Under the pieces are notes generated by a model. The model did no database searches and was not told the origin of the DNA. It saw nothing but the letters and a program-made list of their open reading frames with translations. From the NCBI GenBank assembly GCA_005191425.1, contig SUPR01000029.1, forward strand, positions 1-32,000: a stretch of DNA of 32,000 bases. The letters run 5' to 3'. The stretch comes from Candidatus Helarchaeota ASGARD archaeon Hel_GB_B. Lineage in GTDB: Archaea > Asgardarchaeota > Lokiarchaeia > Helarchaeales > HEL-GB-B. A program made the position numbers and the translations under genes. Shown piece after piece: positions 5,796 to 31,849 of the stretch (the first letter of the stretch is position 1; every line of letters begins with the position of its first letter).

Positions 5796-6018
5796 ATTCT
5801 GAAATATTATTTGAGAAATCTCTTGTGTTAAAATTTTTAGAAATTTTTAAAATGAAAAAAATCAAATTGCTAAAAAAATGGGTTGATTATACAGCCCGAA
5901 TCATCTTTACCTTAAAAAATAACTGTAAAATACATTTGATATTATCAAAACTTAAAAAGAATTACATGTTTTATCATATAAAAACTTATATTCCAAATAT
6001 TAAATCTATATTAAGGAT

Positions 6019-8496: not shown

Positions 8497-8500
8497 TATT

Positions 8501-8779
8501 TTGCACTATCTATTTAATTTTAATGATTTTGTAATTATTGTTAATGATCTTTTTGGCAATATTTTTCAATTTTTAATAATATGTGCTACATTATTATTAA
8601 TTGTAAACCTTCTTCTTTACTTTTTCACAAATCAGAAAGATTTAAAACCTATATTAACCTGCATAGCTACAGTAGGAATTTGTACTCTTCTAAATTATTT
8701 GATTTTTGGCCGATTCCCTTCCTTACCTCCATTTTTACAATTTATTGAGGTATGGATCAAACAACTATTGGGACTATAA
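8501..8779 (+). CDS. Small two-TM hairpin membrane protein (VirB2/CedA1 pilin-sized)
   Basis: TTG start 4 nt after the upstream stop, with GGAGG RBS at 8487-8491. Two hydrophobic helices separated by the charged loop TNQKDLKP. The pilin assignment is inference only. Confidence 0.6.
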   Translation: MHYLFNFNDFVIIVNDLFGNIFQFLIICATLLLIVNLLLYFFTNQKDLKPILTCIATVGICTLLNYLIFGRFPSLPPFLQFIEVWIKQLLGL

Positions 8780-8902
8780 TTTAAAACAATACTAAAAATG
8801 AAAGAAATAAAAATATTGATCCATATATAAAAAATAGTTGCTAAAATTAGTGCCCAATAAATAAAATATTTATCAATAAGTTTCAAATTTATTGATTTAA
8901 AT

Positions 8903-9283
8903 TTATATATTCCAAAAATCATAATAAAGTGATCCAGGGTCTATATTATCAGTATCTACATATATAGTCTCTAATTTTTCAATTAAACTTTTGGTTTCAT
9001 TATAGAATTCGATGGCGTCTTCCTTTTTTCCAAAATTTTTAATGAATTGAATTTCATTATTATCATAATTAAAAAAAATGTGGTCAAAATTAAGCCTAAA
9101 GTTGATCAATTTTAACATTTCTAAAAAGGTTTCAAATTGGGATAATTTAATCGTGCTAAAGAAATTATTAGAGAATAACTTTTTGAACCCTGATGAAATT
9201 AATAAAAGTACTTCATACTTATCTGATTTTTGTAAAATTTCGAGAAACCCGATTCTATTGTCATAATTTTTAAATTCGTTCAC
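8903..9283 (-). CDS. Hypothetical protein, 126 aa
   Basis: Protein-like composition; last gene of the apparent 11023-8903 operon (18-nt gap to the upstream gene). Confidence 0.6.
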   Translation of the reverse strand: MNEFKNYDNRIGFLEILQKSDKYEVLLLISSGFKKLFSNNFFSTIKLSQFETFLEMLKLINFRLNFDHIFFNYDNNEIQFIKNFGKKEDAIEFYNETKSLIEKLETIYVDTDNIDPGSLYYDFWNI

Positions 9284-9301
9284 TTTAATTCCTCTAATTT
9301 C

Positions 9302-9694
9302 TTAAAGTTCTGGGCCGAGTTTTTCAAATATGATTACAATTAAATAAAACAATTTTAACACAATTTTTTGGGTATTCATAGAATATTCTAGATTTTTGCT
9401 ATAGAACGAGAATTCATTATGGTCAATTAGAATGGAATCAATATTATATTTGGAAAGACATCTTGAAAAAATAATACATAATTCAATATATTTTCCAAAT
9501 TCTTCTTTATTTAAGCTTATTCTTTTAAAATTTATAGTTATAAAAAATTTGATGCCTTTTAATTCATTTGATAAAATTACATATTTAATTATCCCTTTAT
9601 CATATAAAATACACTCTTTATTTTTTTCAAAGATTTTTTCCCAATTGATATTATTTTCATTCATTAAAAAATCAATATTTAGCATTTTGTGCAC
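9302..9694 (-). CDS. Hypothetical protein, about 130 aa
   Basis: GTG start directly abuts the TAG of the LAGLIDADG-TFE gene. An alternative ATG at 9685 has an AGGTG RBS. Confidence 0.6.
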   Translation of the reverse strand: MHKMLNIDFLMNENNINWEKIFEKNKECILYDKGIIKYVILSNELKGIKFFITINFKRISLNKEEFGKYIELCIIFSRCLSKYNIDSILIDHNEFSFYSKNLEYSMNTQKIVLKLFYLIVIIFEKLGPEL

Positions 9695-11023
9695 CTAATA
9701 AGCTATTTTTATTGTATTAAAATTTTCATAACCAATCAATTTAGCATTAGATTTTAGTACAGAATTAATAAATTTAGTTAAAATCCGTAATTCTTGAGAT
9801 GGACGGGTCTCAGGGATTATTGTCATATTCATCAGGGTATTACATTCAGGACATTTGAAATCATCATTTTCAAAATATAATAAATAATTGAATGTTTTTA
9901 GGCAATTTGGACATTCCAAAATAATTGAATCGCCATTATTTTTTAGTTTATTATATTTGGATTCGAGCGATTTTTTAGTTAAATTAATAACTCGCATTGA
10001 ATTACTTATGAATTCTTTTCTCCCTCTTGCAAAATATTCGAGTATCCCCAATTCACTTAATTTGTATAGTGTGCGCCGAATTTCATTACTACCTACTTTA
10101 AATACTTGTTCTAATAAGGTATATGGAATTTTATCGTTATTATTATGATAAATACAATGCAATGAATACCCCCAAATTGTCAAATCAAATTCTTCAAGAG
10201 GATATAGGTTAATAATAGTCGTATAATATTTTTCTATCGAGCGTAATTCAAGTATTGTAGCCATGGCTAATGACTTGACTTTATCTGGCTTAAAATGCTT
10301 AAATAATAGCGTCAAATTACTTTTACCGCAGATTAAAAGTCCTTCATGATGGTCTGAGGATTTTATTCCAAGTTGAAATAAAATATCCTTGATTTGGTTT
10401 AGAAATGATTTTAAAAATTTTTTTTTGATATTAGAATGGATTTTTGAATTTAATAATCTTAAAATTAGAAATTCTCGAATTCCCCCCTGTCTGTTATTAA
10501 AAACATAATGAGCTTTTTTCGAACTAAAAAGTCCAGAAAGTATTCCCATTTTCACTTCATTAGAGAGTCCTTGAAGGATTTGTGGGCTCTGGATATTAAG
10601 TCCGATACATTTTAAATATTTTTTAAAAGAATTTGGAAACTTAACAATGAATTTTTGATAATATTTGTAAAATTTTTTTCTGTAGGTCTTACGTTTCTTT
10701 TCTTGCTTTTTGAGTTCTATTTTTACTCCAATTTTTTCACTAAATTTTTTAATAAAAGGAATTTGAGTGGGTTCTATGACCAAAATAAATTGTTTATTAG
10801 AAGAATAACTTGAACCAACGGCAATACCATAGAAATATCCATAATCATAATCTGGATTTTGTAATTTAAATTTTTGATTATTTATTAAAATATCGCAATT
10901 ATCAGTTAAATTCTTTAAAAATGGTGTTATTCGTACCCATTTATCATTATTAATATCATAATATTTAGCTTTTTCTTTACTTAGTCTATTAATTAGTAGT
11001 CTGTTGTTCAATATTCTAACCAC
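9695..11023 (-). CDS. Fusion of an inactive two-motif LAGLIDADG domain with a TFE-alpha/TFIIE-alpha-like wHTH and Zn ribbon
   Basis: LAGLIDADG-like helices GYFYGIAVGSS (aa 62-72) and GILSGLFSSKK (aa 160-170), both lacking the acidic catalytic residue; FLNQIKDILFQLGIKS is typical of intein-type LAGLIDADG domains. Then EIRRTLYKLSELGILEY (TFE-like wHTH), CPNC-x16-FKCPEC (TFE-like Zn ribbon) and a terminal helix ELRILTKFINSV. Confidence 0.75.
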   Translation of the reverse strand: MVRILNNRLLINRLSKEKAKYYDINNDKWVRITPFLKNLTDNCDILINNQKFKLQNPDYDYGYFYGIAVGSSYSSNKQFILVIEPTQIPFIKKFSEKIGVKIELKKQEKKRKTYRKKFYKYYQKFIVKFPNSFKKYLKCIGLNIQSPQILQGLSNEVKMGILSGLFSSKKAHYVFNNRQGGIREFLILRLLNSKIHSNIKKKFLKSFLNQIKDILFQLGIKSSDHHEGLLICGKSNLTLLFKHFKPDKVKSLAMATILELRSIEKYYTTIINLYPLEEFDLTIWGYSLHCIYHNNNDKIPYTLLEQVFKVGSNEIRRTLYKLSELGILEYFARGRKEFISNSMRVINLTKKSLESKYNKLKNNGDSIILECPNCLKTFNYLLYFENDDFKCPECNTLMNMTIIPETRPSQELRILTKFINSVLKSNAKLIGYENFNTIKIAY

Positions 11024-11263: not shown

Positions 11264-12244
11264 TTATGAATTAAAAATGTAATGATCAATCCGCTTTTGC
11301 TTTATTTTTAAATCTTTGAATCCTTTATTTAACCTGGCTAAACCTCTTCGCACTCTATTTATAGAAAAATTCTTCTCTAATAAATATTCCTTAATAGCCA
11401 AAATATTTGGATATTGAAAATAAACATCAAATTTTGAGGTTATTGGTTTCAAGAATAGGTTTCTAATTTTATTAGCATCAAATTCGTTAAATTCGTAGTC
11501 CTTTCTCATGGTCTCAATATTACCATATTTCTTTATCATTTTTAATGATGTTTTAGGGCCAAATCCTTCGAATCCTGGATGATAATCATTTCCCATTAAG
11601 ATAATGATATCAATCAATTGGTTAAAAGAAATATCTAATTTTGTAAGTACTTTATTCAAAGAGATTTGCTGTAAAGTATTAGTCTTAAAGTTCAATTTTC
11701 TATAAATCTTTGGACATCCAAATATTAAGCAATCATAATCTTCAGAAATAACTCCATATGCCTGTTGCTCTTTAACAAGGCGCACCGCTTGAGCTTCTCC
11801 CTCACTTGGTGCTCTAAATACCGGAACTCCGAACATTCGTATAAATTTAATTAAATCTTCAATTATATATTTATATAGGAAGAATGAATCTTTAAAAACC
11901 TTTAACTTACTTCCATTTCCACCTAAACTATTATATTTTTTCCATGCATTTGACAACCTCTTAATTTTATAGTAATTATATGGTCTTTTTTCTCTTGGTG
12001 GAATTCCATCAAAGATAAAAATTGGTTTAATTTTTCGTTCGATTAAATTTATAATAAAATAAAAGAAACCATAGATATGAGAGACTGGATTTCCATGATA
12101 ATCATAAAAAATATCTTGAGAATTTTTTATTTTTGTTATATATTTAAATAATAAGTTAGTTGCGTCAATAACAATCGTCTTATGTGAAATATCACTAAAA
12201 TTTATTGTTTCTGAAATTACAAGTTCTTTTAATTTAAGACCCAA
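11264..12244 (-). CDS. fen: Flap endonuclease 1 (XPG/FEN1 family)
   Basis: MGLKLKEL start (TTG, AAGGTGG RBS); IDAT, FDGIPP, APSEGEAQA, SEDYDCLIFG, GNDY and GFGPKTSLKMIKKYG motifs; C-terminal PIP-like QKRIDHYIF. Confidence 0.93.
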   Translation of the reverse strand: MGLKLKELVISETINFSDISHKTIVIDATNLLFKYITKIKNSQDIFYDYHGNPVSHIYGFFYFIINLIERKIKPIFIFDGIPPREKRPYNYYKIKRLSNAWKKYNSLGGNGSKLKVFKDSFFLYKYIIEDLIKFIRMFGVPVFRAPSEGEAQAVRLVKEQQAYGVISEDYDCLIFGCPKIYRKLNFKTNTLQQISLNKVLTKLDISFNQLIDIIILMGNDYHPGFEGFGPKTSLKMIKKYGNIETMRKDYEFNEFDANKIRNLFLKPITSKFDVYFQYPNILAIKEYLLEKNFSINRVRRGLARLNKGFKDLKIKQKRIDHYIFNS

Positions 12245-12394: not shown

Positions 12395-13168
12395 TTAAAC
12401 ATGATATAATTCACTACATGCGGATATATTTCTTATAATTTTATATAAAACAAATGACGGTAATATTTCAAATTCAACATGGGCAAATGCATTGCTAAAT
12501 ATCGACTTCATTATTAAAAGGTTAGTATCAATAATATTGTAAACTTTTTGTATATTTTTTTCATTTAGATTACCTTTTAATTTATAAAAACACCCGTATA
12601 AAATTTCAGTTTTCCATTTTTCCATTCTCGAAGGGATATTATCATGAAAATTTAAGAATAATTCAGGAAAATCATCAGCCCATTGTAAATATCTGTCATT
12701 ATTATTGTTAATTTCATTAACTGAAACAAAAGAATAATCATAAATTCTAAAAAAACAGAGATTATTATCGGCCATAGACCGAATAAATTTTTTAAGATTA
12801 CTCTGTATACCTAATGGAATTGATGCAATCCTGAAAATAGCTAAAGCAGATAAAGTTTTCCCATTATCTAATAATATAATGTGGTCATTTTCAATATTAT
12901 TTTTTAGGCGATAGAGTTTAGGTAATCTTGTAGGATTAATTAGCAAAACCCTTTTGTTTTTAATGAATTTTTTATCAATCTTGAAAAAATAAATTAATAG
13001 AATTATCATTGCTATTGAGAAGCCAAAAATAACATATATTATTGCTAATATTGGTAAATTAATAGATGAGATAAATAAAAAATAAAATATTATAGATAAA
13101 TACATAATACCAGTAATTAAAAATTTATTTTTAAAAACAAATCCAGCTATTTTTTCGAGAAATTTCAA
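12395..13168 (-). CDS. Two-TM membrane protein, paralogue of the N-terminal domain of the VirB4-like ORF 2417
   Basis: HIILLDNGKTLSALAIFRIASIP vs DVLFIDNGDKTTGLTLFKIKAP; NLKKFIRSM vs SFNEFVRGL; EKWKTEILYG vs GIWRTTIIFG. TTG start with GGAGTGA RBS. Confidence 0.75.
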   Translation of the reverse strand: MKFLEKIAGFVFKNKFLITGIMYLSIIFYFLFISSINLPILAIIYVIFGFSIAMIILLIYFFKIDKKFIKNKRVLLINPTRLPKLYRLKNNIENDHIILLDNGKTLSALAIFRIASIPLGIQSNLKKFIRSMADNNLCFFRIYDYSFVSVNEINNNNDRYLQWADDFPELFLNFHDNIPSRMEKWKTEILYGCFYKLKGNLNEKNIQKVYNIIDTNLLIMKSIFSNAFAHVEFEILPSFVLYKIIRNISACSELYHV

Positions 13169-13186
13169 TCTTATTCACTCCTTTCT

Positions 13187-13699
13187 TTATTTGATTAAAA
13201 ATTCAATTAGCCCAATAATGATATAAAAAATATTCCAAGCGATAATTATACCGTCATTTTGAAAAACCATCGGGTAGAAGCACATTCTCACAATTAAAAA
13301 TGTCATAAATCCCACCCAAAAAATTATCCAGGCAAGAAATATCACTTGCTTTTTTGTTAAAGAAAATTTATCTGAAACAAATAAATTGTATTGAAAAGAA
13401 TTGACATTTTTTTTACTACCATCAATAGAAATTATATCCGGAAGTTCTTTTGAAAGTTCCAACAAGATATTAACATTATCTTCTAGTTCTTTTATTTCAT
13501 CTGAAGATAAATTATTGTTAAAAATTGTGTCAAAATTAAAATCAATTTCATTCATTATGGTCTTAAAAGATAAAGCATTTGAAATTATTTCATTTGTATT
13601 ATTTTTTCTTATCAATAAATCCCAAATCACTACAATTGAAATTATTACTCCAATAATAACCGGCCAAAACGAAATAAAAAAATTGATAATTAAATCCAT
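13187..13699 (-). CDS. Multi-pass membrane protein (one N-terminal and two C-terminal TM helices)
   Basis: Hydrophobic segments FWPVIIGVIISIVVIW, VIFLAWIIFWVGFMTFLIV and IIIAWNIFYIIIGLIEF; GGGTG RBS; operon gaps of 9 and 18 nt. Confidence 0.7.
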   Translation of the reverse strand: MDLIINFFISFWPVIIGVIISIVVIWDLLIRKNNTNEIISNALSFKTIMNEIDFNFDTIFNNNLSSDEIKELEDNVNILLELSKELPDIISIDGSKKNVNSFQYNLFVSDKFSLTKKQVIFLAWIIFWVGFMTFLIVRMCFYPMVFQNDGIIIAWNIFYIIIGLIEFLIK

Positions 13700-13708
13700 A
13701 ATAACACC

Positions 13709-14134
13709 CTAATTTTCAAAATCAAATAATTCAGATGAAAAGAAATCTTCTAAATCACAATTCACCAATTCAGATTCAATTTTTCTTCTAATAATTTTGG
13801 TAATTTCGGGATTTGGCCCAATAATATAAACACAAACAAGGTCATTATTTAAAATAACATTTTTCGAGTTAGAATCATTGACCGAAATTATAGCATTTTT
13901 GAAGTAGAAAGTATCATAAATTCTTTTTGCACCGATAAATTTACTTGGAATTATGTTATTTATTAATAATATTTTCTGATTTTTAGTTATATATAATAAT
14001 TCAGATTCTTTTCTTCTTGAATAATATTTAGATCTGGCTAATCTAACATCTTTAGGAAGAAAATTTATGAGTCTAAAGTATAAATAGAAAATTATTCCGA
14101 CAATTATAACTCCAATCAGTAAAATCTCAATCAT
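13709..14134 (-). CDS. N-terminally anchored small membrane protein
   Basis: MIEILLIGVIIVGIIFYLYF anchor; first gene of a three-gene operon divergent from the helicase. ATTTATAAAT TATA-like box at 14151-14160. Confidence 0.7.
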   Translation of the reverse strand: MIEILLIGVIIVGIIFYLYFRLINFLPKDVRLARSKYYSRRKESELLYITKNQKILLINNIIPSKFIGAKRIYDTFYFKNAIISVNDSNSKNVILNNDLVCVYIIGPNPEITKIIRRKIESELVNCDLEDFFSSELFDFEN

Positions 14135-14233: not shown

Positions 14234-16897
14234 GTGAATAAATTGATCAAGTACGATAAGATCATTAAAGATATGTTAGAAAAAGTTGGTATCGAAAATT
14301 TACGGCCAATTCAGAAGCAGTCGGTGCCATTTATATTTGGGAAAAAGCCAAGAAACTTATTAATAGTGGCACCCAGTGCCAGTGGAAAAACTTTAATTGG
14401 GGAGCTTGCGTTAATGAATGCTGCATTAAACGGAATGAAAGGTTTTTATTTAGTCCCATTAAAATCTATAGCAAATGAAAAATTTATAGATTTCTTCAAA
14501 AAATATAGTGCTAATATTTCGATTGCAATCACTACGGGGGATTTTGATATCTCTATGGAAGAATTGGAAAAAAAACAAATAATAATAACAACATATGAGC
14601 GATTTGATTCAATTATTAGAAAAAAACCTTCTTGGTTTAAAAGGATTTTTGTAGTAGTTATTGATGAAATCCATAATATTGGCGATAGAACTCGTGGTAT
14701 AAAACTTGAGAGCCTTTTAACCCGACTTATGACTTATAATCAAATTCAAATTATTGGACTATCGGCTACAATTAAAAATCCAGAGGACTTAGCAAGCTGG
14801 TTAAATGCGGAATTAATAATAAACAAAGAAAGACCCGCAGAATTGCGATATAAAATTCTTATCTCAGAAAATAAATATGAAACCTTAAAAAATTTAATAC
14901 CAAAATTGGTCGAAAAAAAAGCACAAATACTAATTTTTACTAGAACTCGAAAAGAGTCAGAAAAATTAGCAAAAAATCTATCAAAAGTTGTCAAAAAATA
15001 CCTCACTTTTGATGAATTTCAGGAATTGGATTCATTTTCTAAAAATATTATGGAGTCATCACTTGATTTTCAGACAATTACTGGCGGTGTTGGCTATCAC
15101 CATGCCGGCTTAGATCATAATTCAAGAATTTTAGTTGAAAAATTGTTTAATAATTCATTAATTAAAGTCATTTGTTGTACTACTACATTGTCTTCCGGGA
15201 TAAATACGCCTGCAAATATTGTAATAATAAAGGATTTTAAAATGTACAATAATATTTCAAACAGACCAGAACTTTTGGATAAAAATAAATTCCATCAAAT
15301 TTCTGGAAGAGCTGGAAGATTTGAAAAAAATATTGGTTTTGCAATTATTATGGTATCAAATGAAGAGGAAGCAAATAAAGTAAAGGAATATTATTTTAAA
15401 GAAATTAATTTAAATAATGATAAATATCATAAAAAAAGCGTTTTAAAAGCTAAATATGAAAATATTTTTAGTTCATTACCTGAAAATAGATATGCTTTAA
15501 TCGATCAAACATTGGTTTTTATTCATCACCATGCTGAAGGAATAACTAGAAATGATTTAATTAGATTTTTTAAAAAGACATTCTTTTATTTTCAATTAAA
15601 AAGCCATGGAAATGAAGATTATTTAATAGAACGACTTGCGTTTGATAAAAAGAATATAGAAGCTGTCTTAAGAGCTCATTTAGTTAACCCCAATAACATT
15701 ATACCTGCGGAAGTAAAGGCTATACATATATTAGAAGATAGATTTGAAGGTATTGTTATTACTAATCATGAAAAAATTGATAGAATTTGTAGTTTTTCTA
15801 ATAATTCCCGATACTGCACTTGCTCCACTTTTAAAAATACAGGTTTTTGTATTCATTTATATCATTTAGCTATTGCAGCATTGAAAAAATATCGGATTTC
15901 ATCGGAAGATATCATTTTAAGTTCATTTAATGAAAATTTTATTTTAGATTATCTTCTTAATAACAATCTAATTTATATCGAAAATGAGCGGTTTAAGTGT
16001 ACAGAATATGGAAATTTAATTGTGAATCTATTTATAGACTCGCGTATGTTTCTATTTATTAGAAATAGATTGAAATTTACTACTTGTACTTATGATTTTT
16101 TAGATTTGATTAAAAAATTAACGGAATTAAAGTTTGAAAAATCTCTGAGTTATCATTATCTTTCAGTATTAAATGAAATAATAAATACTGACGAAAATAT
16201 CGATATTAATAAATTTTTAAAAAAGATGAGTACATCTGAAATTGGAATTGGTGACCTTGAGAGTTTTATAGAGGCATGTAGATGGGTAACTAATGTGATA
16301 ATAAAAGTTGCAGAAAATACAATTGAAGGAAACGAAAAAATCATTAATATTGGAAAAATGGTCTTGGATAAAATAAATAGACCATTACCAGATGAAGAAA
16401 TGATGTATAAAATAGTCCAAAGCTCAATGGGTTCGAATATTGGCATTATAAAAAGTAACGATGAAGATATGAAACGAATATTCTGTAAAAAAGTCAAATA
16501 TTTTTTAGTATTACATAAAATAAGCGGAGTCCCAATTTATTCATATAATTTCTCTCTTAATGACCTTGACTCGTCATTAATATCTGGTTATTTGACAGCA
16601 ATTAGTAGTTTCGGGCTAGAAATATCTGGAGGAATTCAAACAAACGTGAAAAAAATGGAATATGATAAAATGAAAATTTTGATACAAGAAGGAGAAAACA
16701 TTCGAGCTACTATTATCTTGGAAGAAGGATATGATGAATGGGTTTTAGAGCGACTTAAAATTTTTATTGAAAATGTTGAGAATAAATTTACAAATTTACA
16801 GAACTGGAATGGAGATTTAAACATGTTTCGGAATATCGGAAAAATGTTTAATGAAGTATTTGGTTATAATCTAATTGAAGACCCGCCAAATATTTAA
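14234..16897 (+). CDS. Ski2/Hel308-like SF2 (DEAD/DEAH-box) helicase with a SWIM Zn finger and a C-terminal longin-like domain
   Basis: Helicase motifs APSASGKT, DEIH, LSAT, TTTLSSGINTPA and QISGRAGR; CTC-x8-CIH (SWIM-like, about 15812-15860); C-terminal YFLVLHKISGVPIY...DSSLISGYLTAISSF longin-like domain (about 16493-16897). Confidence 0.88.
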   Translation: MNKLIKYDKIIKDMLEKVGIENLRPIQKQSVPFIFGKKPRNLLIVAPSASGKTLIGELALMNAALNGMKGFYLVPLKSIANEKFIDFFKKYSANISIAITTGDFDISMEELEKKQIIITTYERFDSIIRKKPSWFKRIFVVVIDEIHNIGDRTRGIKLESLLTRLMTYNQIQIIGLSATIKNPEDLASWLNAELIINKERPAELRYKILISENKYETLKNLIPKLVEKKAQILIFTRTRKESEKLAKNLSKVVKKYLTFDEFQELDSFSKNIMESSLDFQTITGGVGYHHAGLDHNSRILVEKLFNNSLIKVICCTTTLSSGINTPANIVIIKDFKMYNNISNRPELLDKNKFHQISGRAGRFEKNIGFAIIMVSNEEEANKVKEYYFKEINLNNDKYHKKSVLKAKYENIFSSLPENRYALIDQTLVFIHHHAEGITRNDLIRFFKKTFFYFQLKSHGNEDYLIERLAFDKKNIEAVLRAHLVNPNNIIPAEVKAIHILEDRFEGIVITNHEKIDRICSFSNNSRYCTCSTFKNTGFCIHLYHLAIAALKKYRISSEDIILSSFNENFILDYLLNNNLIYIENERFKCTEYGNLIVNLFIDSRMFLFIRNRLKFTTCTYDFLDLIKKLTELKFEKSLSYHYLSVLNEIINTDENIDINKFLKKMSTSEIGIGDLESFIEACRWVTNVIIKVAENTIEGNEKIINIGKMVLDKINRPLPDEEMMYKIVQSSMGSNIGIIKSNDEDMKRIFCKKVKYFLVLHKISGVPIYSYNFSLNDLDSSLISGYLTAISSFGLEISGGIQTNVKKMEYDKMKILIQEGENIRATIILEEGYDEWVLERLKIFIENVENKFTNLQNWNGDLNMFRNIGKMFNEVFGYNLIEDPPNI

Positions 16898-16900: not shown

Positions 16901-18859
16901 TTACAAATTAATTTTGTTATAAAACATTTTTACAATTCTTCCAACAAGTCCCTCATATTTTTCGATTTTTATAATCCTGTCTTGTATCCAATTACTTAAT
17001 AATTTAAAATATTTTTTATAAAAAAATCTTTCATCTAAAAATATTATTATTCCTTTATCATCAAGTTTTCTGATAGGTCTTCCTGCTGATTGATTTGCTT
17101 TTCTTAAAGCAGGGATATAATACGCATATTCCAGTCCTCGTTCTTCACCAAATAAGTTTTGATAATATTTAATCAATTTTTTTATTGAATACGAAATTTT
17201 TGCAAAAGGTATGCCAACTATGACTACAGTACTCATTTCCTTACCTGGAAAATCTACACCCTCAGAGTTTCTACCACCAGATGCACCAATTAAAAACCCT
17301 CTCATACCCTTGTAAGGTAATTTCTTATATTCAGTGATCATAGCTTCGTTCTCTTTACTATTCATACTTTTAGATTCCATGAAAAATTTGATCCCCAATT
17401 CCTCTATTTTTTCTTTTAGCCCTTGTTCTAAAAGTCCATTAATTACTGAATAAGATGCACAGAAAACCCCTGTATTATATTTTGTGTTTTTAGCTGCTTC
17501 AACACAACAATTCATGATAAACCTATAATTCTCTTCAGTTCGGTCTTCAAATTTTAGAGTGATATCTTGTACTCCTATTATTGAAACATTTTCAAATGGG
17601 AATGGCGATGGTAGTATTCGTTCTTTAGTATTATCAAGGGTCATCCCGCAAATTTCTCGGAATGCTCGTATCGGCGCTAAAGTACCAGAAATTATCACCA
17701 AATTTCTTGCATTAAATAAATCATTTAAAATGGGTCTAACATCAAGTGTTTTAATCACAAACTCAACATTTATTTTATTTTTAACTTTAGATACTCTTAA
17801 AATATGAATATAGTCTGGTCTTAAATAATTTTGATAGATAAATTGTAAAAAATGTGCTGTTTTATATAGGCTAGACCTAGGAAGTTTATTATTTTTAAGC
17901 ATTAATTCTCGAACTTGTACCCCTTTTTCTATTAAATTATTGAAAAAATTCTCAATATTGTCTGTTTTTATTTGAGAGAAAATATTTTTTAATGTACTTT
18001 TTCTAACAGCTATTTCGATAGTTTCACCCTCTTTTGGGTCGTATGCCATCCCAGTAGTTTCAATAAATGATTTAATGTCCTTAAGAAATTGTATTGATGG
18101 GACATCATCGTCTAATAGTAATCCAATTAATTCATCTAAAGCTCTTTTAACTGATCTGGGTGTGATTTGTTGAGTCCCTGCTTCTAATGCCACATCAATT
18201 ATATTATGCCCTTCATCAAATACAATTATGCAATCAGAAATTAATTTATCGATATCTTTGAAAAAAATTTGCCTGATAAATGGGTGAATTAGATAATTGA
18301 ATGTCGTAATAATTACATCAGTCTCTTTCAATAGTCTTTTTGCCAGATAATAAGGACATATATTATATCTTACGCCAATAGCAATTAATTCTTCACTTTT
18401 ACCTGTTTTTAAATTATATTCAAAATTTTGTAAATTGGTGAAATATTTACAACTTCCATTTTTTCGCAATTGGCTACAAAGATCTGTAATCTCCATTATT
18501 GTCCCTCTCCTGACTTCTTCATTAAGACACATCTCGGTTTTCCCTTTTAATGTTAAACCTCTAACCACATAACCTTGATCACTACCTTTTTTGTTTATTT
18601 CCTCTAATTCAGCAATAACCCTATCCATTTGGGTATGCGTCCGAGTAGCATATATCATAGTTAAATTGTTTTGCTTGATAATTGGTATAATAGCAGATAA
18701 AGTTGTTATTGTTTTACCAGAACCATTTGCAGCTTCTATGAGAATGAATTTATGTGGTAATTTTAAATGGTCATATATTTCATTCATTAATAGACCTTGT
18801 CCAGGCCTAAGTGAATTATAGGGAAAAAACTTTCTAATTGAAGAAGGAATTGATATCAT
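16901..18859 (-). CDS. xpd: XPD/Rad3/DinG-family Fe-S DNA helicase
   Basis: AANGSGKT; four Fe-S cysteines (KTEMCLN, DLCSQ, GSCKYF, ICPYY); DEGHN, SGTLAP, SEGVDF and NQSAGRPIR motifs. Confidence 0.92.
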   Translation of the reverse strand: MISIPSSIRKFFPYNSLRPGQGLLMNEIYDHLKLPHKFILIEAANGSGKTITTLSAIIPIIKQNNLTMIYATRTHTQMDRVIAELEEINKKGSDQGYVVRGLTLKGKTEMCLNEEVRRGTIMEITDLCSQLRKNGSCKYFTNLQNFEYNLKTGKSEELIAIGVRYNICPYYLAKRLLKETDVIITTFNYLIHPFIRQIFFKDIDKLISDCIIVFDEGHNIIDVALEAGTQQITPRSVKRALDELIGLLLDDDVPSIQFLKDIKSFIETTGMAYDPKEGETIEIAVRKSTLKNIFSQIKTDNIENFFNNLIEKGVQVRELMLKNNKLPRSSLYKTAHFLQFIYQNYLRPDYIHILRVSKVKNKINVEFVIKTLDVRPILNDLFNARNLVIISGTLAPIRAFREICGMTLDNTKERILPSPFPFENVSIIGVQDITLKFEDRTEENYRFIMNCCVEAAKNTKYNTGVFCASYSVINGLLEQGLKEKIEELGIKFFMESKSMNSKENEAMITEYKKLPYKGMRGFLIGASGGRNSEGVDFPGKEMSTVVIVGIPFAKISYSIKKLIKYYQNLFGEERGLEYAYYIPALRKANQSAGRPIRKLDDKGIIIFLDERFFYKKYFKLLSNWIQDRIIKIEKYEGLVGRIVKMFYNKINL

Positions 18860-19629
18860 TTATTATAAACCCCTTTTTTATAGTTATATAGAAGTTTTCC
18901 AGTTAATAGACTAACAAGTATACCAATTACAATTGAAATTATCATATAATTATAATTTATAAAAAATAAATTTATAAGATTAGAACGAGCAAATCCTGAA
19001 TAATTAGAATTGATTATTGTACAAGTTAATATCGGCTCAGATACTAGATTTTCTCTTATTGAAACTTCATATTTCAACAATATTTTAGAATTTATATCAT
19101 AATAATAGGAAATAATCAGTGCTTGAGTAAAAACTGTTATAATATGTGTATAGACTTGACATAAAATCAACCCGATTTTATTTCCGAAATCAATCACTTC
19201 TAACTGGGATTTCTGAAATAAAACTTCTGATGGGGAAAGATTTGTAGCCAATATTATTTGTGGTTGAAAATCCATTAATATCCACTGCTGATGGTCATTA
19301 TCTTGGTCTTTACCAGTTTCTGGATCTATATAATATGTGCTACTTTTTATATATTCGAAAAAATTTAATCTATAGTTTTCAGTATATGTGACAATTATAA
19401 CCTGACTAGAAATATTAAATTGAACTTCGATATTCGATTGATATTGACCTTTTAAATAGAAGGAATCAGGACTAATCTCTATCAAATTTCCATTAACTAT
19501 ATATGATACATTAAAATTGCCTAAAGTTGCTGAATAAGTTATTTTTGAATAGAAAATTAACATATTAAATAAACCAAAAATAGATAAAAGAATAATAAAA
19601 AAAATACTAGCCCTATTTTTAAAATTCAT
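18856..19629 (-). CDS. Surface protein with N-terminal signal/TM and C-terminal TM, inside the radA-xpd operon
   Basis: Hydrophobic termini (ASIFFIILLSIFGLFNMLIFY; YMIISIVIGILVSLLTGKLLY). Its stop overlaps the xpd ATG by 4 nt; it starts 24 nt after radA. Confidence 0.75.
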   Translation of the reverse strand: MNFKNRASIFFIILLSIFGLFNMLIFYSKITYSATLGNFNVSYIVNGNLIEISPDSFYLKGQYQSNIEVQFNISSQVIIVTYTENYRLNFFEYIKSSTYYIDPETGKDQDNDHQQWILMDFQPQIILATNLSPSEVLFQKSQLEVIDFGNKIGLILCQVYTHIITVFTQALIISYYYDINSKILLKYEVSIRENLVSEPILTCTIINSNYSGFARSNLINLFFINYNYMIISIVIGILVSLLTGKLLYNYKKGVYNK

Positions 19630-19653: not shown

Positions 19654-20751
19654 TTACGAGCGTTTTCTTCGTACTATCTTTTTAGTTTGTGGGACTTCTT
19701 TTTCAACTGTATTAATTTGCCTTTCTGTTGATGGATTTTTATTCATTTTGGTATCGGATTGTTTTATTGTATTTATTTTAACAGGTTTTACACCTAAATC
19801 ATAATATCCAGTATCTCGTAATACAAGTACAACTTCACTTTTTGGTAAATCTACGGCTTTTTCAACTTTAAATTTACGTTCTCCTTTTGCTGAACTTTTG
19901 ATTGTAACTTGGATTCTGATTTCCGATTCATGTCCAATTACATTTCCCATTGAATGTTTAATTCCAGCGCCATAGCCCGAAGGGTCGCCTGTTGCTTGAT
20001 TTGTAATTACAGCAACAATGTTATATAATTTAGCAAATTTTTTAATTTCATGAAGTATTTGATTGGCTTTTTGTTGTCGCTCGGGTATTAATTGCCTTTG
20101 TGCACCATATTCTGACCTAAAATGCGTAGCAATTGAGTCAAGTACTACTAATTTAGCACCCGTTAATTCTATTTGCGTTCCTAATTGTTGAGAACACATA
20201 TATCGTAATGCATCAGAATTAGCTGGAACTGCCCGAGAAATTCCTTTAATAACTGCATTACCATCTAGACCAAACCTGGGCGCTATCTCTCTAATTCTTT
20301 TTAATGATAAAGAATTTTCTGCATCAATAAATACAGTACCCCCACCAAGTCCTCCTTTTGATTTTGGCAAAGCAGCAGTACATATCAATTGATGTAGCAT
20401 ATTTGATTTTCCGGTACCCTCAGGACCCCAAAATTCATACAATCTTTGAGTAGACAAACCCCCACCTAATATTTCATCAAAAGTTTTACAGCCGGTCGTT
20501 AATATTTCTCTTTTATTATATTCTTCTAATAATTCGTCTCCTGTCTTAAATTTAAGACCAAGTACCCCATCTGACTGTTCAGCCGCAGATCTAATAATTT
20601 TTTTTGCAACAGCTTCTGTAATTCCATCAATTGCAGCTAATTCACTAGGCCTCGCAGTTGCTATTGATTCTATAGTTCTAAAACCATTATCAATTAGTTT
20701 CTGGGCAGTAGTAGCTCCAATTCCATCCAATCTTTCTAAATCTGAACTCAA
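19654..20751 (-). CDS. radA: RadA/Rad51-family recombinase (divergent, with C-terminal extension)
   Basis: N-terminal HhH domain (LERLDGIGATTAQKL, GFRTIESIATA), TGCKTFDEILGGG, Walker A GPEGTGKS, LP-x-x-x-GGL, IDAE, LDS, FRSEY, ERQQK and TNQ motifs. TTG start with AGGTGA RBS. Confidence 0.9.
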   Translation of the reverse strand: MSSDLERLDGIGATTAQKLIDNGFRTIESIATARPSELAAIDGITEAVAKKIIRSAAEQSDGVLGLKFKTGDELLEEYNKREILTTGCKTFDEILGGGLSTQRLYEFWGPEGTGKSNMLHQLICTAALPKSKGGLGGGTVFIDAENSLSLKRIREIAPRFGLDGNAVIKGISRAVPANSDALRYMCSQQLGTQIELTGAKLVVLDSIATHFRSEYGAQRQLIPERQQKANQILHEIKKFAKLYNIVAVITNQATGDPSGYGAGIKHSMGNVIGHESEIRIQVTIKSSAKGERKFKVEKAVDLPKSEVVLVLRDTGYYDLGVKPVKINTIKQSDTKMNKNPSTERQINTVEKEVPQTKKIVRRKRS

Positions 20752-21279: not shown

Positions 21280-22704
21280 ATGACCTCAAAAACACATGTT
21301 TGTCTAATTCAATGCGATTATCCTAAAGACCATAGTTTTATTATTAAAGATATTATTTTTCCACCATTAGGATTAGAGTATTTAGCTGCAAATATTGGGG
21401 ATTTAGCTGAAATTAAGATTTTTGATAATAGATTTCCCGAATATAACTTAAAAAATCTTAAAAAAGAATTTGAAAATTTTCACCCAGATATTGTAGGGAT
21501 AAGTGTAAATTTCTCCAATCAAATTTATCATGCAAATGCTATAGCTAAAATTGCAAAAGATTTTGGAGCTAAAGTATTAATGGGTGGTTGGCATGCCACT
21601 GCAGTACCTGAGGACACGTTATCATTTCCATGGACTGACCTTGTTATTCGTGGTGAAGGAGAATCTGCTCTGAGAAACCTGATTATAAAAGGTAGTCCTT
21701 CTGACATAAAAGGGATTTCTTATAAAAAAAATGGAAAAATAATTCACAATCCTGACCAAGAATTGTTAGATTTAAATTCATCTAATCCTCCTGCCCGAAA
21801 TTATAGGCCTAAATTCGCTAAAAAATATTATAACTTTTTTGGTGTTCCGGTTGATTCGATGGAAACGAGCAGAGGATGTCCATATAGATGTAAATTTTGT
21901 AATATACATAATTTTTATCACCATAAATATAGAACACGCTCAATTCGTCAAATCATCCAGGATTTAAATCAAATTAATGAATCAGTTAAATTAGTATATA
22001 TTATTGATGACAATTTTACTGCATATAGAAGTCATGTAATCGAAGTATGTAATGCAATAATTAAAAGAAATATAAAAAAAGCATTTATGAGTACTTCACG
22101 CCTAGATCAAGTTGTAAAATACCCGGAAATTTACGAATTAATGGCAAAAGCTGGGTTTATTTTTACTTTTGTAGGAATTGAAAGCTTTTCCAATAAAACC
22201 TTAAAAAGTTTAAACAAACAGCTTGAATTGAAACAAATTAGAAAAGGTATAAAAATTCTGCATGATTTAGGGTTTATTATTGAAGGAAATATTATATTGG
22301 GAGCAAATTATAACGATACAAAAAAGGATTTAGAATCAACATTGGAAATAGCTAAAAGTCTAGACATCGATATACCGACCTTCTCTTTACTTACACCTTA
22401 TCCTATGACAGACCTCTGGGATGAAGTCAATGAAAAAGGGCTTCTTTTATCGGGGATTGACTGGCACAAATTCAACTGGAATAACCCAATTATAAAATAT
22501 CCTCATTTGTCTCCTGAAGATTTGAAATATTATCTAAATAAAGCATATTTCGAGGTCAGACGATTTAAAAATCCATTAAATAAATTTGTTAATATTCTCA
22601 GAGCTAGAGGGCTGTCTTTCTTTATTTCTACTTTTCTAACTCAAGGTGGAATCAAATCTCTAATACATTTTATTAAAAGAATATATCCTGACTTTTTGAA
22701 ATGA
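21280..22704 (+). CDS. Cobalamin-binding radical SAM protein (BchE-like / class B methyltransferase-like)
   Basis: PPLGLEYLAA, PDIVGIS, GGWHAT and RGEGE (B12-binding domain); SRGCPYRCKFC (CxxxCxxC); DDNF, GIES and TPYPMT motifs. Confidence 0.92.
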   Translation: MTSKTHVCLIQCDYPKDHSFIIKDIIFPPLGLEYLAANIGDLAEIKIFDNRFPEYNLKNLKKEFENFHPDIVGISVNFSNQIYHANAIAKIAKDFGAKVLMGGWHATAVPEDTLSFPWTDLVIRGEGESALRNLIIKGSPSDIKGISYKKNGKIIHNPDQELLDLNSSNPPARNYRPKFAKKYYNFFGVPVDSMETSRGCPYRCKFCNIHNFYHHKYRTRSIRQIIQDLNQINESVKLVYIIDDNFTAYRSHVIEVCNAIIKRNIKKAFMSTSRLDQVVKYPEIYELMAKAGFIFTFVGIESFSNKTLKSLNKQLELKQIRKGIKILHDLGFIIEGNIILGANYNDTKKDLESTLEIAKSLDIDIPTFSLLTPYPMTDLWDEVNEKGLLLSGIDWHKFNWNNPIIKYPHLSPEDLKYYLNKAYFEVRRFKNPLNKFVNILRARGLSFFISTFLTQGGIKSLIHFIKRIYPDFLK

Positions 22705-22948: not shown

Positions 22949-23659
22949 ATGAATGATAATAAAAGAAGGGCATCTTTAAATTTCTTGACACTAAAAAGCG
23001 GACTGGATGGATTGGATAGGCAACTAAGAAATGGTTTTAGCCCAGGAATAATTCACATTTATGGCCCCCCTAATACTGGCAAATCTAATTTTGCAATGCA
23101 ACTTGTATTAAATGCGATTACTACTTATGATTCTGAACCAATTTGGATTGATACAAATAATAATTTTGAATTTAGAAGACTTATCCAAATGACTGGAAAT
23201 AATATAAGAATATTGAGAAATTTCAAATATTTAAATCCTATAAATTACGATGAATTTAAAATTTTGATCGAAAATATCCCAAAAATTATAGATAATAAAA
23301 CAATGGTGCTTGTAATTGATCCCATTACTTATTTCTATAGATTAAATGTGAATTTAAATAATTGGTTCGGCTTAAAACGAGATTTAATTAAAATTCTTGG
23401 AAAATTTATTGGTATCTCTGTTAAAAATCATTTAATAATTATATTAGTCAATCAAATAAAAGGTCATGAAATGAAATTAGAAGCAGTGTGTCAGGATATT
23501 CTAGAATTATATTCAAAATATTCATTACTTTTTGAGAATAAAAATGGCTTAACTATTACTCTTCGTAAATTACGTAATATAAAACTCAATAAGAAATTTA
23601 AGTTTAAAATATCAAACAATGGACTTTCGGATTTTAGCACAAAAATAGGAATTGATTAA
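22949..23659 (+). CDS. radB: RadB-like RecA-family paralogue
   Basis: SGLDGLDRQL, YGPPNTGKSN, WIDTNNNF, VIDPIT and VNQI motifs; no N-terminal HhH domain; 236 aa. The basic patch LRKLR sits where RadB has KHR. Confidence 0.78.
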   Translation: MNDNKRRASLNFLTLKSGLDGLDRQLRNGFSPGIIHIYGPPNTGKSNFAMQLVLNAITTYDSEPIWIDTNNNFEFRRLIQMTGNNIRILRNFKYLNPINYDEFKILIENIPKIIDNKTMVLVIDPITYFYRLNVNLNNWFGLKRDLIKILGKFIGISVKNHLIIILVNQIKGHEMKLEAVCQDILELYSKYSLLFENKNGLTITLRKLRNIKLNKKFKFKISNNGLSDFSTKIGID

Positions 23660-25255: not shown

Positions 25256-26044
25256 ATGATAACTATTGGAATAGATGTTGGTTCATTAACTACTAAAGCA
25301 GTAGTATATGATGGTAAAATATTAGGAACATTTATCTCAAGATCGGGTCATCAATTTGAACGAGCTGGGATAGATGTTTTTAATAAGGTTTTGAATATTG
25401 CTGGAGTAAAAAAAGAAGATATTGACTATATATTAAGCACAGGATATGGAAGATATTCATTGCCCTTTACAAATGATAAAGTTACGGAGATTACGGCTCA
25501 TGCTAGGGGTGTTAACTTTTTTTATCCAAATGTACGGACAATAATTGATATTGGTGGGCAGGATAGTAAAGCAATGAGAGTACAAAATGGTCAAGTTAAA
25601 GACTTTATGATGAATGATAAATGTGCTGCTGGAACAGGACGTTTTATTGAAGTTATGGCTAAAGCACTTTCGGTAAACTCTCTAGATGAGATGGGAAAAC
25701 TATCATTACAATCAAAAAATCCGGCTCAAATCTCTTCTATGTGCACGGTTTTTGCCGAATCAGAAGTTATTTCATTATTTGCAGAAAAAAAATATTCTAA
25801 AGTCGATATAATTGCTGGTATTCACAACTCAATTGCTAAAAGAATAGGTGGATTAGTGCGAAGGCTGGGAAAAATTGAAGAAGATGTTGCATTTGTTGGT
25901 GGAGTTGCAAAAAATATTGGCGTTAAAAAAGCATTAGAAAATGAATTAAAAGTAAAAATAGTCTCTCCGGAAGGAGATTACCCCCAATTAACTGGTGCAT
26001 TAGGGGCAGCAATTATTGCTTACGAACGAGCTAACAAAAAATAA
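25256..26044 (+). CDS. Acyl-CoA dehydratase activase (HgdC/BadF/BcrA-D family, ASKHA ATPase with [4Fe-4S])
   Basis: GIDVGSLTTK, TGYGR, EITAHARG, DIGGQDSK, MNDKCAAGTGRF, SSMCTVFAESEVISL, GGVAKN and GALGAA motifs. Confidence 0.95.
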   Translation: MITIGIDVGSLTTKAVVYDGKILGTFISRSGHQFERAGIDVFNKVLNIAGVKKEDIDYILSTGYGRYSLPFTNDKVTEITAHARGVNFFYPNVRTIIDIGGQDSKAMRVQNGQVKDFMMNDKCAAGTGRFIEVMAKALSVNSLDEMGKLSLQSKNPAQISSMCTVFAESEVISLFAEKKYSKVDIIAGIHNSIAKRIGGLVRRLGKIEEDVAFVGGVAKNIGVKKALENELKVKIVSPEGDYPQLTGALGAAIIAYERANKK

Positions 26045-29800: not shown

Positions 29801-31849
29801 AGAGTTGGAAGAAATATATCATTTCACGCTAACCTTACAAGCCTAGATTTCGGGCCTATGATAGGTACAAGCGTTATATTTAACATAACATATCTATTTT
29901 ATACAGGAAATAGCAGTTTACTTGTTTATAAATCATTTGGGACCAATGAAAATGGTACTGCCAGTTATAGCATTGAACATATTCCTGATGGTGTTAAGAA
30001 AATCTATATTTCAGTAAAATATTTAGGAACAAATACATATCATTCTTGCTCTGACTTTAAAAATTATTCCGTAAATAAGAAATTTAATACCTCTCTTGAA
30101 TTAATATCTGCACTCCCCCAAGAAGTTATGGTAGGTAATTATATCTTTTTAGAAGTTAAGTTGACTAACACTGAAAATGGCGTTCCAATCTCAAAAGCTA
30201 CCATTAATTTCAAAATTTTATTCGATAATGGCTATTCATTGACCCAAAAGTCCACCACATTAACTACGGGGATAGCAATATCAAACATTAAAATACCCAA
30301 TGAAGCGTCAAATGCACAATATTTTACTGTGTCTATTGATTATGAAGGTGATTATTCAATAGTAAATGCATCGTTTATTTCACATGCCCGGATAAATGTT
30401 TTAACACCAGTTCGATTATTTGTCCGTAATCTTCCATTTATTCTTACTGTAGTGGCAATTGGGGTAGCCTCAGTTCTTACTTATCAATTTACAATTAGAG
30501 CTCCTAGAATTAGACGAAAAATCCGTAGAATGAGAGAAGTTAATCAGAAATTTTCTGATATTTTGAATGTCCAACACCTGATGATTTTATATAAAGAAAC
30601 TGGAATAACAATCTATAACCATTCATTTCAAGAAAGAACTTTTGATCCCGACTTAATTTCTGGCTTTCTAACGGCTATTGCTTCATTTCAAACTGGCTCT
30701 CATATTAAAACAGGAAAAGATGCAATTACAAGCGGTTTTGAACTAACATATGCTAATTTTATTATTTTAGTTGAAGAAGGAAATTATACCAGAGTTGGAC
30801 TCATATTAGACCAAAAACCATCAAGTGAACTAAGACAGTCTTTAAGAAAATTTCTGAATTTATTTGAGAATAAATATGAAAAAGAATTAAAGCAGTTTTC
30901 TGGTTATATAAAGCCTTTTAAAAATTCTGGTAAACTAGTAGAACAAGTATTTGAAGCATCCTTGATTTGGCCACATAGAGTAAACCCAAATATTACAAGT
31001 GAAATGGAGAAAAATCTAACAAATTTCGAGAGCATGATTTTAACCTTAGCATTGACAATTCAAAAAGAAAAAAGCTTTTTTATGACCCCAGCATTGATTG
31101 AAGCAGTACTGGAAGTTAAAAAAACAAAAACTGAAGAAATTCTGGCAGCCTTCGATGACTTAAGAAAAAAGAATATCTTTATACCCTTTCCATTAGAGGA
31201 ATTGGCAAAAATTATTGAAGAAGATAAAGAAAAAAGTCAAATAGTTGATATTACAACAAAATTAGAGGATGATGAAGAAATAGTCCCCCCAATAAAAGGT
31301 GTCCCCAAAAAAGATATGGTATATTTAAATAAACATCTAAAATTAACGAATTATGTCTTCCAAAAATGGTTTTTAAATGAACTCTCAAAAACACCATTAC
31401 CTGAAATAACTAATTACATAAAGAAAATAATTAATAATTGGAAAAAGAATAAAGATGAAATTACATCATTAATGAATAAAGCAAAAAATTCCAAAGAAAA
31501 AGGCGACCTCGTTAGTGCAGTAGAAATATTCGACGAAGCTAAAAAATATGCCGAAGAAATTGGTCTTGAAGATAAAGCAACTGAAATTTCCAATAAAATC
31601 CATGAAACTCTTGAAATTATGAAAAATAATGTTCCATTAAAATATGAAAAATTAATTAATAAATTCCTAAACGAAATAAATGAAATTAATAAAAAAGCAG
31701 AAATTGAAGTCAATAATAAAAACTTCATCAATGTCTGTATTTTATATATCAAAGCAGCCCATTTATCGCTCCAAATTGGTGATAGCAAAACAGCCCAATT
31801 ATATCTTGATGAAATTGTAAAATATGAAAAAAATCTTGAAGACCTTTAA
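26849..31849 (+). CDS. Receptor-like single-pass surface glycoprotein: large Ig-like ectodomain, TM helix, cytoplasmic longin-like and helical domains
   Basis: N-terminal signal/TM; about 50 N-x-S/T sequons by manual count before the TM (LPFILTVVAIGVASVLTYQFTI); three ~108-aa repeats starting near 29471, 29795 and 30122; cytoplasmic VQHLMILYKETGITIY...DPDLISGFLTAIASF domain; helical TPR-like C-terminus. Confidence 0.85.
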   Translation: MRISVNNHKVKSTFLILILAFMIFVNLFALNYIIPYSRYSNNKLNSKKSNNFIQNSNSGFVESPITNPNSLYAENNTNAVLTCNKTQSFLGRTPHLIKINTYNWNFTATKLGFFGISQNYTLIVEDIAEDHNNIFQEDVYDEWAQGFSLNAQFSRINKIGLYLQYRGKYDLWVEVYNATDTGDLSLEPDKLLMKSETVTIENLFNAKSEFIIFNFQSNKIINNSETCDNTFFIILNGTKTGGIYAFVEWWYADDEKGIDNGDALEYKNNRWELNSIDYYSIINLTQLFFPEDINMKINDSATTTIDVLNGASPGRGHVSFSKFIPNSNVSILVTSTTFVNFMAISNTRLSNSSHALTQFYAGSQLPTVNINISLYAHFIIDSFAKKLNITLQKSWNVSLISASQLILSSSDWKRSGNYLLINASDNFYAIKCIDHNYIGNIILNTYKDSLFINHNLTVNNTFRIYNSITPINLTIYNSSDRLIHTQKKLPSNYYCSFDPYNMTSNGMFKIILKWFNGTSIGYNFSNIEVQYHADFYEISDNINQSKPFQAGELVLVDAFYNNTELNCGILNASSDISINMTSRTQYNVSEFGGGYYNITIYTNQLTSKNYTLVISAHKVGYEESNFSIRFQIITHFNATMNITGYYGNVFRNGSWWVHPNPYFSDNTHKIQIIYKNGTAPYDGIYPAAIYAYPNWSSDVWYGNPFDTFGRYDITLDTTGLHEGDKGEITIIATSNMFETKEIRIFFKIDEIPENLLSFDINGFEEITAYEGETIQIAASFIDDFHGKDIVFENDTEGNLTWYIPGTTATGLMSKIIHTYMDSIELPSYNITGGDYNITIKAQALRDYATKEVNISLHVLNKEPTNINITYYTESDVRIGKPLYIYSTLSFSNGTRLNYKMLEFNLTYLNNTIIIDSVNTTILTDSNGVATYFISELPDNINKIRVNCSYSGTEKIAETKGSRIINVLDKYVTFINITAEYYNDIRVGRNISFHANLTSLDFGPMIGTSVIFNITYLFYTGNSSLLVYKSFGTNENGTASYSIEHIPDGVKKIYISVKYLGTNTYHSCSDFKNYSVNKKFNTSLELISALPQEVMVGNYIFLEVKLTNTENGVPISKATINFKILFDNGYSLTQKSTTLTTGIAISNIKIPNEASNAQYFTVSIDYEGDYSIVNASFISHARINVLTPVRLFVRNLPFILTVVAIGVASVLTYQFTIRAPRIRRKIRRMREVNQKFSDILNVQHLMILYKETGITIYNHSFQERTFDPDLISGFLTAIASFQTGSHIKTGKDAITSGFELTYANFIILVEEGNYTRVGLILDQKPSSELRQSLRKFLNLFENKYEKELKQFSGYIKPFKNSGKLVEQVFEASLIWPHRVNPNITSEMEKNLTNFESMILTLALTIQKEKSFFMTPALIEAVLEVKKTKTEEILAAFDDLRKKNIFIPFPLEELAKIIEEDKEKSQIVDITTKLEDDEEIVPPIKGVPKKDMVYLNKHLKLTNYVFQKWFLNELSKTPLPEITNYIKKIINNWKKNKDEITSLMNKAKNSKEKGDLVSAVEIFDEAKKYAEEIGLEDKATEISNKIHETLEIMKNNVPLKYEKLINKFLNEINEINKKAEIEVNNKNFINVCILYIKAAHLSLQIGDSKTAQLYLDEIVKYEKNLEDL

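Follow-up and report, generated by a model that had tools for sequence, protein, structure and literature searches.

The stretch analysed here comprises positions 1 to 32,000 (forward strand) of contig SUPR01000029.1 in assembly GCA_005191425.1, from the Asgard archaeon Candidatus Helarchaeota Hel_GB_B, and this whole 32,000-nucleotide piece is referred to below as the window. At 14234..16897 (+) it carries a gene for a Hel308-family helicase with a SWIM finger and a C-terminal longin domain, set in a cluster with genes for FEN1, XPD, RadA and a RadB-like RadA paralogue. The frame is open for 887 codons from a GTG at 14234; a TTG at 14243, three codons further on, starts the 884-aa form that constitutes the protein database entry. 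Its stop codon is 3 nt away from where the convergent XPD gene ends. Contigs from four public hydrothermal-vent and marine-sediment metagenome runs, which cover the gene at at least 90% identity, cross the helicase/longin junction without indels, so the fusion is not an assembly artefact; a chimera as its origin was rejected on the same grounds. Four other assemblies encode the same fusion. No RNA data for the gene were found among the public runs listed as containing it. The helicase–longin protein is a genuine and unreported domain combination that joins a known enzyme family to a known kind of Asgard module.

Domain layout of the helicase–longin protein

The N-terminal 460 residues are a Ski2/Hel308-type superfamily 2 (SF2) motor, with the RecA1 and RecA2 domains at residues about 1–410 (14234..15463, +). 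Pfam recognizes DEAD (E 2e-31) and Helicase_C (E 1e-11), and GKT, DEIH, SAT, HHAGL and QxxGRAGR, covering motifs I, II, III, IVa, V and VI of a DExH protein, are invariant across 57 homologues, which bears out the intact SF2 core described in an earlier sequence-only reading of the window. By sequence, the closest solved relative is Pyrococcus Hjm/Hel308 (2zj2, E 7e-77). In a full-length model built from the 57 homologues (predicted local distance difference test (pLDDT) 86.7, predicted template modelling score (pTM) 0.78), residues 1–717 superimpose on residues 3–644 of the Sulfolobus solfataricus Hel308 chain 2va8_A over 558 residues (Z 35.2, root-mean-square deviation (rmsd) 2.5). The same model fits Hjm 2zj2 at Z 35.1, and identity in the superpositions on Hel308/Hjm is 29–34%. 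Comparison with 2va8_A places winged-helix domain 3 and ratchet domain 4 behind the motor; the ratchet and the remainder of the winged helix occupy residues about 554–727 (15893..16414, +), and the homologue P0164 has a weak Helicase_dom4_arc match there. Hel308 has a five-domain layout in which domain 5 is a brake and annealing element (PMC13623763). No helix-hairpin-helix domain 5 was found here, either as an HHH match in Pfam or in the model, where the Hel308 alignment stops at chain residue 644 (model residue 717) and the longin follows. As modelled, the body of the enzyme is Hel308 domains 1–4 (two RecA motors, winged helix and ratchet), with domain 5 absent.

The genome carries further Ski2-like genes. 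The sequence-only reading had raised the question of a separate canonical hel308, and one is present: contig C109 (26778–29411, +) encodes an 878-aa Hel308 with the canonical domain set (DEAD, Helicase_C, Helicase_dom4_arc and a terminal HHH_5) and without a SWIM motif. On contig C15 (2–2065, −) lies a gene for an ASH-Ski2-type helicase (7ujb, E 7e-111); the protein has CxxC pairs in its N-terminal part, and the end of the contig truncates the gene.

A SWIM-type module is inserted in the winged-helix domain at residues about 490–553 (15701..15892, +). In the full-length model, this insert of ~70 residues forms four strands and two helices between the first winged-helix helices and the recognition helix and wing of the domain, with the CxC where its last strand ends and the CxH where a helix starts. 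The string CTC-x8-CIH that had been picked out from the letters reads C528-T-C530-x8-C539-I-H541 (ligands at 15815–15856), and its four putative zinc-ligand positions are the sole invariant columns in 63 aligned segments. The SWIM signature is CxCxnCxH, with n typically 6–16 (PMC5727457); the spacer of eight residues falls inside this range. Pfam SWIM (PF04434) is by far the commonest family among the homologous segments, matching 23 of the 63 (best E 2.2e-5), and this protein lies under the gathering score at 10.7–14.8 bits vs 19.6. A profile of the segments returned no match among solved structures at E up to 10. Signature, invariant ligands and Pfam matches agree with the earlier assignment of the finger to the SWIM type.

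The finger extends well beyond this gene. Of the 115 best homologues (P0158–P0272), all from Asgard archaea where named, 114 have CxC..CxH in the corresponding position; the spacer measures 8–18 residues in homologues of ~720–785 aa and 21–22 in nearly all of those of ~840 aa, most of which carry PF21280. The sequence-only reading held that canonical Hel308 has neither finger nor longin. This is true of characterized Hel308, but the finger is not peculiar to this gene because nearly all Asgard Hel308-like helicases carry it: judged by its sequence signature, a SWIM-type zinc finger with predicted zinc binding is a shared trait of these enzymes. A SWIM or zinc finger in Hel308 is absent from a phylogenomic study of archaeal Ski2-like helicases that included 75 Asgard genomes (PMC10946056) and from a 2026 review of Hel308/HELQ (PMC13623763). 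A literature search found just one paper naming both SWIM and Hel308, and to judge by title and abstract it is unrelated.

Behind the ratchet, a flexible linker (residues 728–744; 16415..16465, +; pLDDT <50 for 728–741 in the full-length model) leads to the tail, a predicted longin-fold domain of residues 745–887 (16466..16894, +). We modelled the tail with AlphaFold2 from an alignment of the tail, its orthologues and 18 paralogues of the same genome (pLDDT 91.3, pTM 0.86). A longin domain has a five-stranded sheet and two C-terminal helices (PMC10933270), and the tail model displays this topology in the order beta-beta-alpha-beta-beta-beta-alpha-alpha (strands at 10–17, 23–28, 63–66, 69–75 and 79–85; helices at 36–53, 90–107 and 118–132), with an extra short helix predicted at its N-terminus (2–9). 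A search of ~48,000 representative solved chains with VIA-align, independent of Foldseek, matched the model to Fuzzy of CPLANE (7q3d_C, Z 12.9, rmsd 2.8 Å, 123 residues aligned), TRAPP Bet5 (3cue_C, Z 11.8, 2.7 Å, 119 residues), AP-3 mu (9c58_M, Z 11.5, 3.1 Å, 118 residues), Sec22 (3egd_C, Z 11.4, 2.9 Å, 119 residues) and Mon1-Ccz1 (5ldd_E, Z 11.3, 3.4 Å, 129 residues), and likewise to VAMP7. The top 14 structural matches are all longins (Z 10.7–12.9, over model residues ~9–135); roadblock/MglB chains score Z ≤10.6 and end near residue 110. Foldseek was concordant with the longin matches.

By predicted fold the tail is longin-like, with longins as its best structural matches, though curated sequence libraries are nearly blind to the family: neither the tail nor 74 family representatives gave a significant Pfam match to a curated longin family. 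In the ESM Atlas, the same shape occurs in Promethearchaeota proteins of 730–760 aa and also beside HTH_47, V4R and DUF11. PF19036 (Fuz_longin_1) is found in 22–35% of the members of two related Atlas clusters, the 35% belonging to a cluster of 129-aa proteins. The label 'longin-like', first given from the letters, is supported at the level of a predicted fold.

The longin family and the spread of the fusion

A paralogous longin domain lies elsewhere in the window, at 30566..30967 (+), in the tail of a 1666-aa membrane protein (gene 26849–31849, +), where it was recovered by BLASTP and by the genome search. Helicase residues 745–887 align with residues ~1241–1375 of this protein at 34% identity over 133 aa (E 1e-20), far beyond chance, and the likeness that the sequence-only reading had claimed between the two domains stands. 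The 1666-aa protein has a hydrophobic segment at its N-terminus, many NxS/T sequons along an extended region, a single membrane span at about residue 1200, the longin, and then a helical tail of ~290 residues without a Pfam match. A cytoplasmic placement of the longin part is plausible by the positive-inside rule because the domain follows a hydrophobic segment and an arginine/lysine run, the RAPRIRRKIRRMR stretch.

These two domains belong to a very large family. In the genome (3.54 Mb, 93.7% complete) the tail has 26 matches, which lie in open frames 137 to 1863 aa long, and a profile search of 1.84 billion cluster representatives returned 9,762 proteins at E ≤1e-3 and 2,917 at E ≤1e-10. Family representatives are 116–3025 aa long and carry the domain anywhere in the chain. 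Pfam companions among 74 of the best representatives include winged helices (HTH_HVO_0163_N, PCI, HTH_24 and DDRGK), Ig-like, NHL, LRR and TPR domains, and caspase; among the best 149 there are no helicases. Abundant longin domains shuffled onto many signalling domains were described in Asgard archaea by Liu et al. (bioRxiv 10.1101/2020.10.19.343400), and the same picture has been published in PMC10933270. Neither main text contains the word 'helicase', and a literature search for longin, Asgard and helicase together found nothing. In a sister species (genome G303, contig C214:2407–2808, locus L059), a 940-aa frame carries a longin 44% identical to the helicase tail, vs 36% for the best paralogue of the tail in its own genome; it may be kin of the donor.

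The full helicase–longin architecture recurs in four other protein clusters at 52–59% identity over the full length and 55–61% over residues 1–745, two of them named as metagenome-assembled genomes of Helarchaeota or Promethearchaeota. In a tree of the helicase part, the five fused forms (P0001 and P0004–P0007) form one clade, which shows a single origin of the fusion. Their sister is P0158, a 725-aa helicase that is 49% identical and lacks the longin. Gene order at the P0158 locus is the same, and XPD directly adjoins the P0158 stop codon, so the longin was acquired, or else lost, at the 3′ end of a gene already in place. We looked for matches spanning ratchet and longin in all 161 reference genomes of the class. 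Only this genome and the other species of its genus gave one; the order's five other genomes (82–94% complete) gave none, and a sample of 301 genomes of the phylum held longin-less relatives only. The sequence-only reading had left room for a one-off. Five clusters in one clade speak otherwise, but among reference genomes the fusion is limited to one genus. It is conserved but narrow, confined to one genus-level lineage.

Repair genes and other neighbours

Around the helicase–longin gene lie, in order, FEN1, three small membrane proteins, XPD, another membrane protein, RadA and the RadB-like paralogue, and the order of neighbours is identical in three orthologous loci and at the P0158 locus. 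The FEN1 flap endonuclease (11264..12244, −) was identified by Pfam XPG_I and XPG_N and by NCBIfam fen_arch (E 4e-74, below cut-off); the convergent XPD/Rad3 helicase (16901..18859, −) by DEAD_2, HBB and Helicase_C_2, with TIGR00604 above cut-off; the RadA recombinase (19654..20751, −) by Rad51 and HHH_5 and by NCBIfam RadA (E 6e-74, 249 bits vs a cut-off of 259); and the RadB-like gene (22949..23659, +) by KaiC/Rad51 and NCBIfam recomb_radB (E 8e-25, below cut-off). All four are conserved by synteny. A relative with 34% identity also has RadA, the RadB-like gene and FEN1 within 8 kb. FEN1 scores 250 bits vs an equivalog cut-off of 352, and RadA and the RadB-like protein are likewise under theirs; the repair genes of the cluster are somewhat divergent.

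Divergent from the helicase, at 12395–14134 (−), stand the three small predicted membrane proteins (257, 170 and 141 aa), none with a Pfam match. Genes of similar size occupy the same positions at the P0004, P0007 and P0158 loci, and the P0006 locus has no called genes there. Between XPD and RadA, at 18856–19629 (−), lies the gene for a 257-aa protein that has a hydrophobic segment at each terminus and lacks a Pfam match; it is kept in three fused-form loci; at the P0158 locus no gene is called in its place.

Upstream, 1154–11023 is a block without any significant Pfam family that is wholly or partly kept in the orthologous loci and encodes proteins of 418, 825, 305, 825, 126, 130 and 442 aa. 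The 825-aa protein following the 418-aa one has weak, sub-threshold winged-helix matches at its C-terminus, and the 442-aa protein has weak, sub-threshold zinc-ribbon matches near its own. The two 825-aa proteins were considered as paralogues and rejected as such, as they have no mutual similarity. Pfam searches of the conserved neighbours without an assigned function gave nothing useful, and hhalign found no similarity between the longin profile and the 126-, 130- and 141-aa neighbours. Between the repair cluster and the gene for the 1666-aa protein lie a B12-binding radical SAM enzyme (21280–22704, +) and a BcrAD/BadFG-type ATPase (25256–26044, +).

Function, rival explanations and known systems

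We consider it probable that the gene encodes a Hel308-family DNA helicase of Helarchaeota-type Asgard archaea that acts in recombination or repair and uses its longin tail as a docking module. From the family and the conserved neighbours we infer that the motor would translocate 3′–5′ on DNA, and recombination or repair is the best inference for its role because FEN1, XPD, RadA and the RadB-like gene are conserved beside it. HELQ reportedly binds RAD51 as well as RAD51 paralogues, and Hel308 has been suggested to interact with RadA (PMC13623763). By analogy with longin folds elsewhere, the tail, held on a flexible linker of ~15 residues, may serve as a portable protein-docking module that pairs with another longin or a roadblock domain, or binds a small GTPase, and docking of this kind could recruit or regulate the helicase. 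The domain comes from a very large and shuffled Asgard family, other members of which form the cytoplasmic tails of giant surface proteins or stand at the head of winged-helix proteins.

Several observations weigh against this proposal. The protein misses the NCBIfam equivalog cut-offs for Hel308 by a wide span (PRK02362, 325 bits vs 887; helicase_Hel308, 250 vs 1200), and these matches cover the motor only. The synteny comes mostly from close kin and speaks weakly for functional coupling. No neighbour of the helicase belongs to the longin family, and no partner was found among them. The longin assignment itself depends on predicted structure, since against the PDB the family profile gave only sub-threshold matches, with Bet5 at E 0.15–0.21.

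The proposed role on DNA has to be set against one on RNA, with the enzyme serving in Ski2/Brr2/Slh1-like surveillance. The RNA helicase cassettes of Slh1, ASCC3 and Brr2 match the protein in PDB sequence searches at E 1e-65 to 1e-70, near the value for Hjm, and the genome has a separate, canonical-set Hel308 on C109. We nevertheless regard an RNA substrate as very unlikely: in structure the model fits Hel308 and Hjm best, the gene lies among DNA repair genes, and an RNA helicase of the ASH-Ski2 type is already encoded on C15. The tail, for its part, might be an intramolecular regulator, folding back onto the motor or the ratchet to brake or switch the enzyme. It occupies the site of domain 5, which acts in Hel308 as a brake and annealing element (PMC13623763), and it hangs on a flexible linker. 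That arrangement seems distinctly improbable, given that the related helicases of ~720–740 aa, P0158 among them, end at the helicase part, with neither room for a domain 5 nor a replacement for it, and that the same longin sits on many unrelated proteins, a better fit to a portable intermolecular module.

If the tail docks onto other proteins, the partner may be a membrane receptor or a GTPase. The sequence-only reading proposed recruitment of the helicase to the membrane through longin–longin pairing with receptor tails such as that of the 1666-aa protein. The two longin domains are clear paralogues, a strongly hydrophobic segment occurs in roughly half of the 149 best family representatives, several genomic copies lie in open reading frames of 1500–1860 aa, and the structural matches include solved longin pairs (Mon1-Ccz1, TRAPP Bet5-Trs23) and an Asgard longin homodimer (8yqg). 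The helicase also has several small membrane proteins among its conserved neighbours, but these are independent of the longin because they also stand beside the longin-less P0158. The 1666-aa receptor is one of 26 paralogous carriers in the genome, and in the orthologous loci none of its relatives lies within 10 kb on either side of the helicase, which leaves only paralogy in its favour. Complex predictions for the helicase and receptor longins, each with its alignment, scored 0.26 and 0.28 against a mark of 0.32, in runs without controls, and speak neither for nor against pairing. On balance, recruitment to the membrane through receptor tails seems unlikely. Binding of a small GTPase of Arf, Rab or Rag type, with recruitment or activity of the helicase tracking the nucleotide state, would suit the best structural matches, which are GTPase platforms (Fuzzy-Inturned, Mon1-Ccz1, TRAPP, SRX and MglB), and the many small GTPases of Asgard genomes, some of them fused to longin or roadblock domains (PMC10933270; bioRxiv 10.1101/2020.10.19.343400). 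However, no GTPase gene was found among the conserved neighbours, and the longin family has no invariant arginine, so an FLCN/NPRL2-type GTPase-activating finger is not evident; we hold this version to be doubtful. Also improbable is a wider scheme in which the tail would plug the helicase into an Asgard network of longins, roadblock domains and small GTPases, possibly including receptor tails, and so let a GTPase platform of eukaryotic style switch or localize repair, while the SWIM finger would be a docking site for a RadA paralogue as in Shu2/SWS1.

A repair helicase with a docking longin would bear on how Asgard longins are read more generally. They are taken as markers of eukaryote-like membrane trafficking. 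A longin on a repair helicase, from a family that is also found on surface receptors and winged-helix proteins, suggests use as a general-purpose adaptor, and this view should temper trafficking-centred readings. Helicase activity is easily assayed, which makes the fusion convenient for finding longin partners. The SWIM insertion, near-universal in Asgard Hel308-like helicases and without mention in the Hel308 literature searched, may bear on how the ancestors of HELQ and POLQ dealt with RadA/Rad51 paralogues.

Each part of the protein has counterparts in known systems. The 'NPRL2-like' longin fusions of Liu et al. (bioRxiv 10.1101/2020.10.19.343400) show the same promiscuity as the present family, but the word 'helicase' is absent from that text. 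Shu2/SWS1 of the Shu complex shares with the helicase the CxCxnCxH signature and a recombination context. The SWIM domain of Shu2 contacts the Rad51 paralogue Shu1 (PMC5727457), and the helicase–longin gene has RadA and a RadB-like paralogue as conserved neighbours; the sequence likeness observed is confined to the motif, and the analogy offers a possible lead. Asgard SWIM-bearing Hel308-like helicases of ~720–740 aa (P0158, P0164) have the same architecture to residue ~725, including CxC..CxH, and P0158 also shares the FEN1/XPD/RadA gene order; they end after the ratchet, whereas the longin is restricted to the P0001 and P0004–P0007 clade. Hel308 and Hjm (PDB 2va8, 2zj2 and 2p6r) have the motor, winged helix, ratchet and all SF2 motifs in common with this protein, which differs from them in its SWIM-type finger within the winged helix, its lack of domain 5, its linker-borne C-terminal longin and its scores below the NCBIfam equivalog cut-offs. 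The GTPase- and coat-platform longins (Fuzzy of CPLANE, TRAPP Bet5/Trs23, the N-termini of AP mu and sigma, Sec22 and Mon1-Ccz1) share with the tail its predicted fold and strand–helix order over ~120 residues (Z 11–13, rmsd 2.7–3.4), but they are only 7–18% identical to it, it matches no Pfam longin, and it sits on a helicase.

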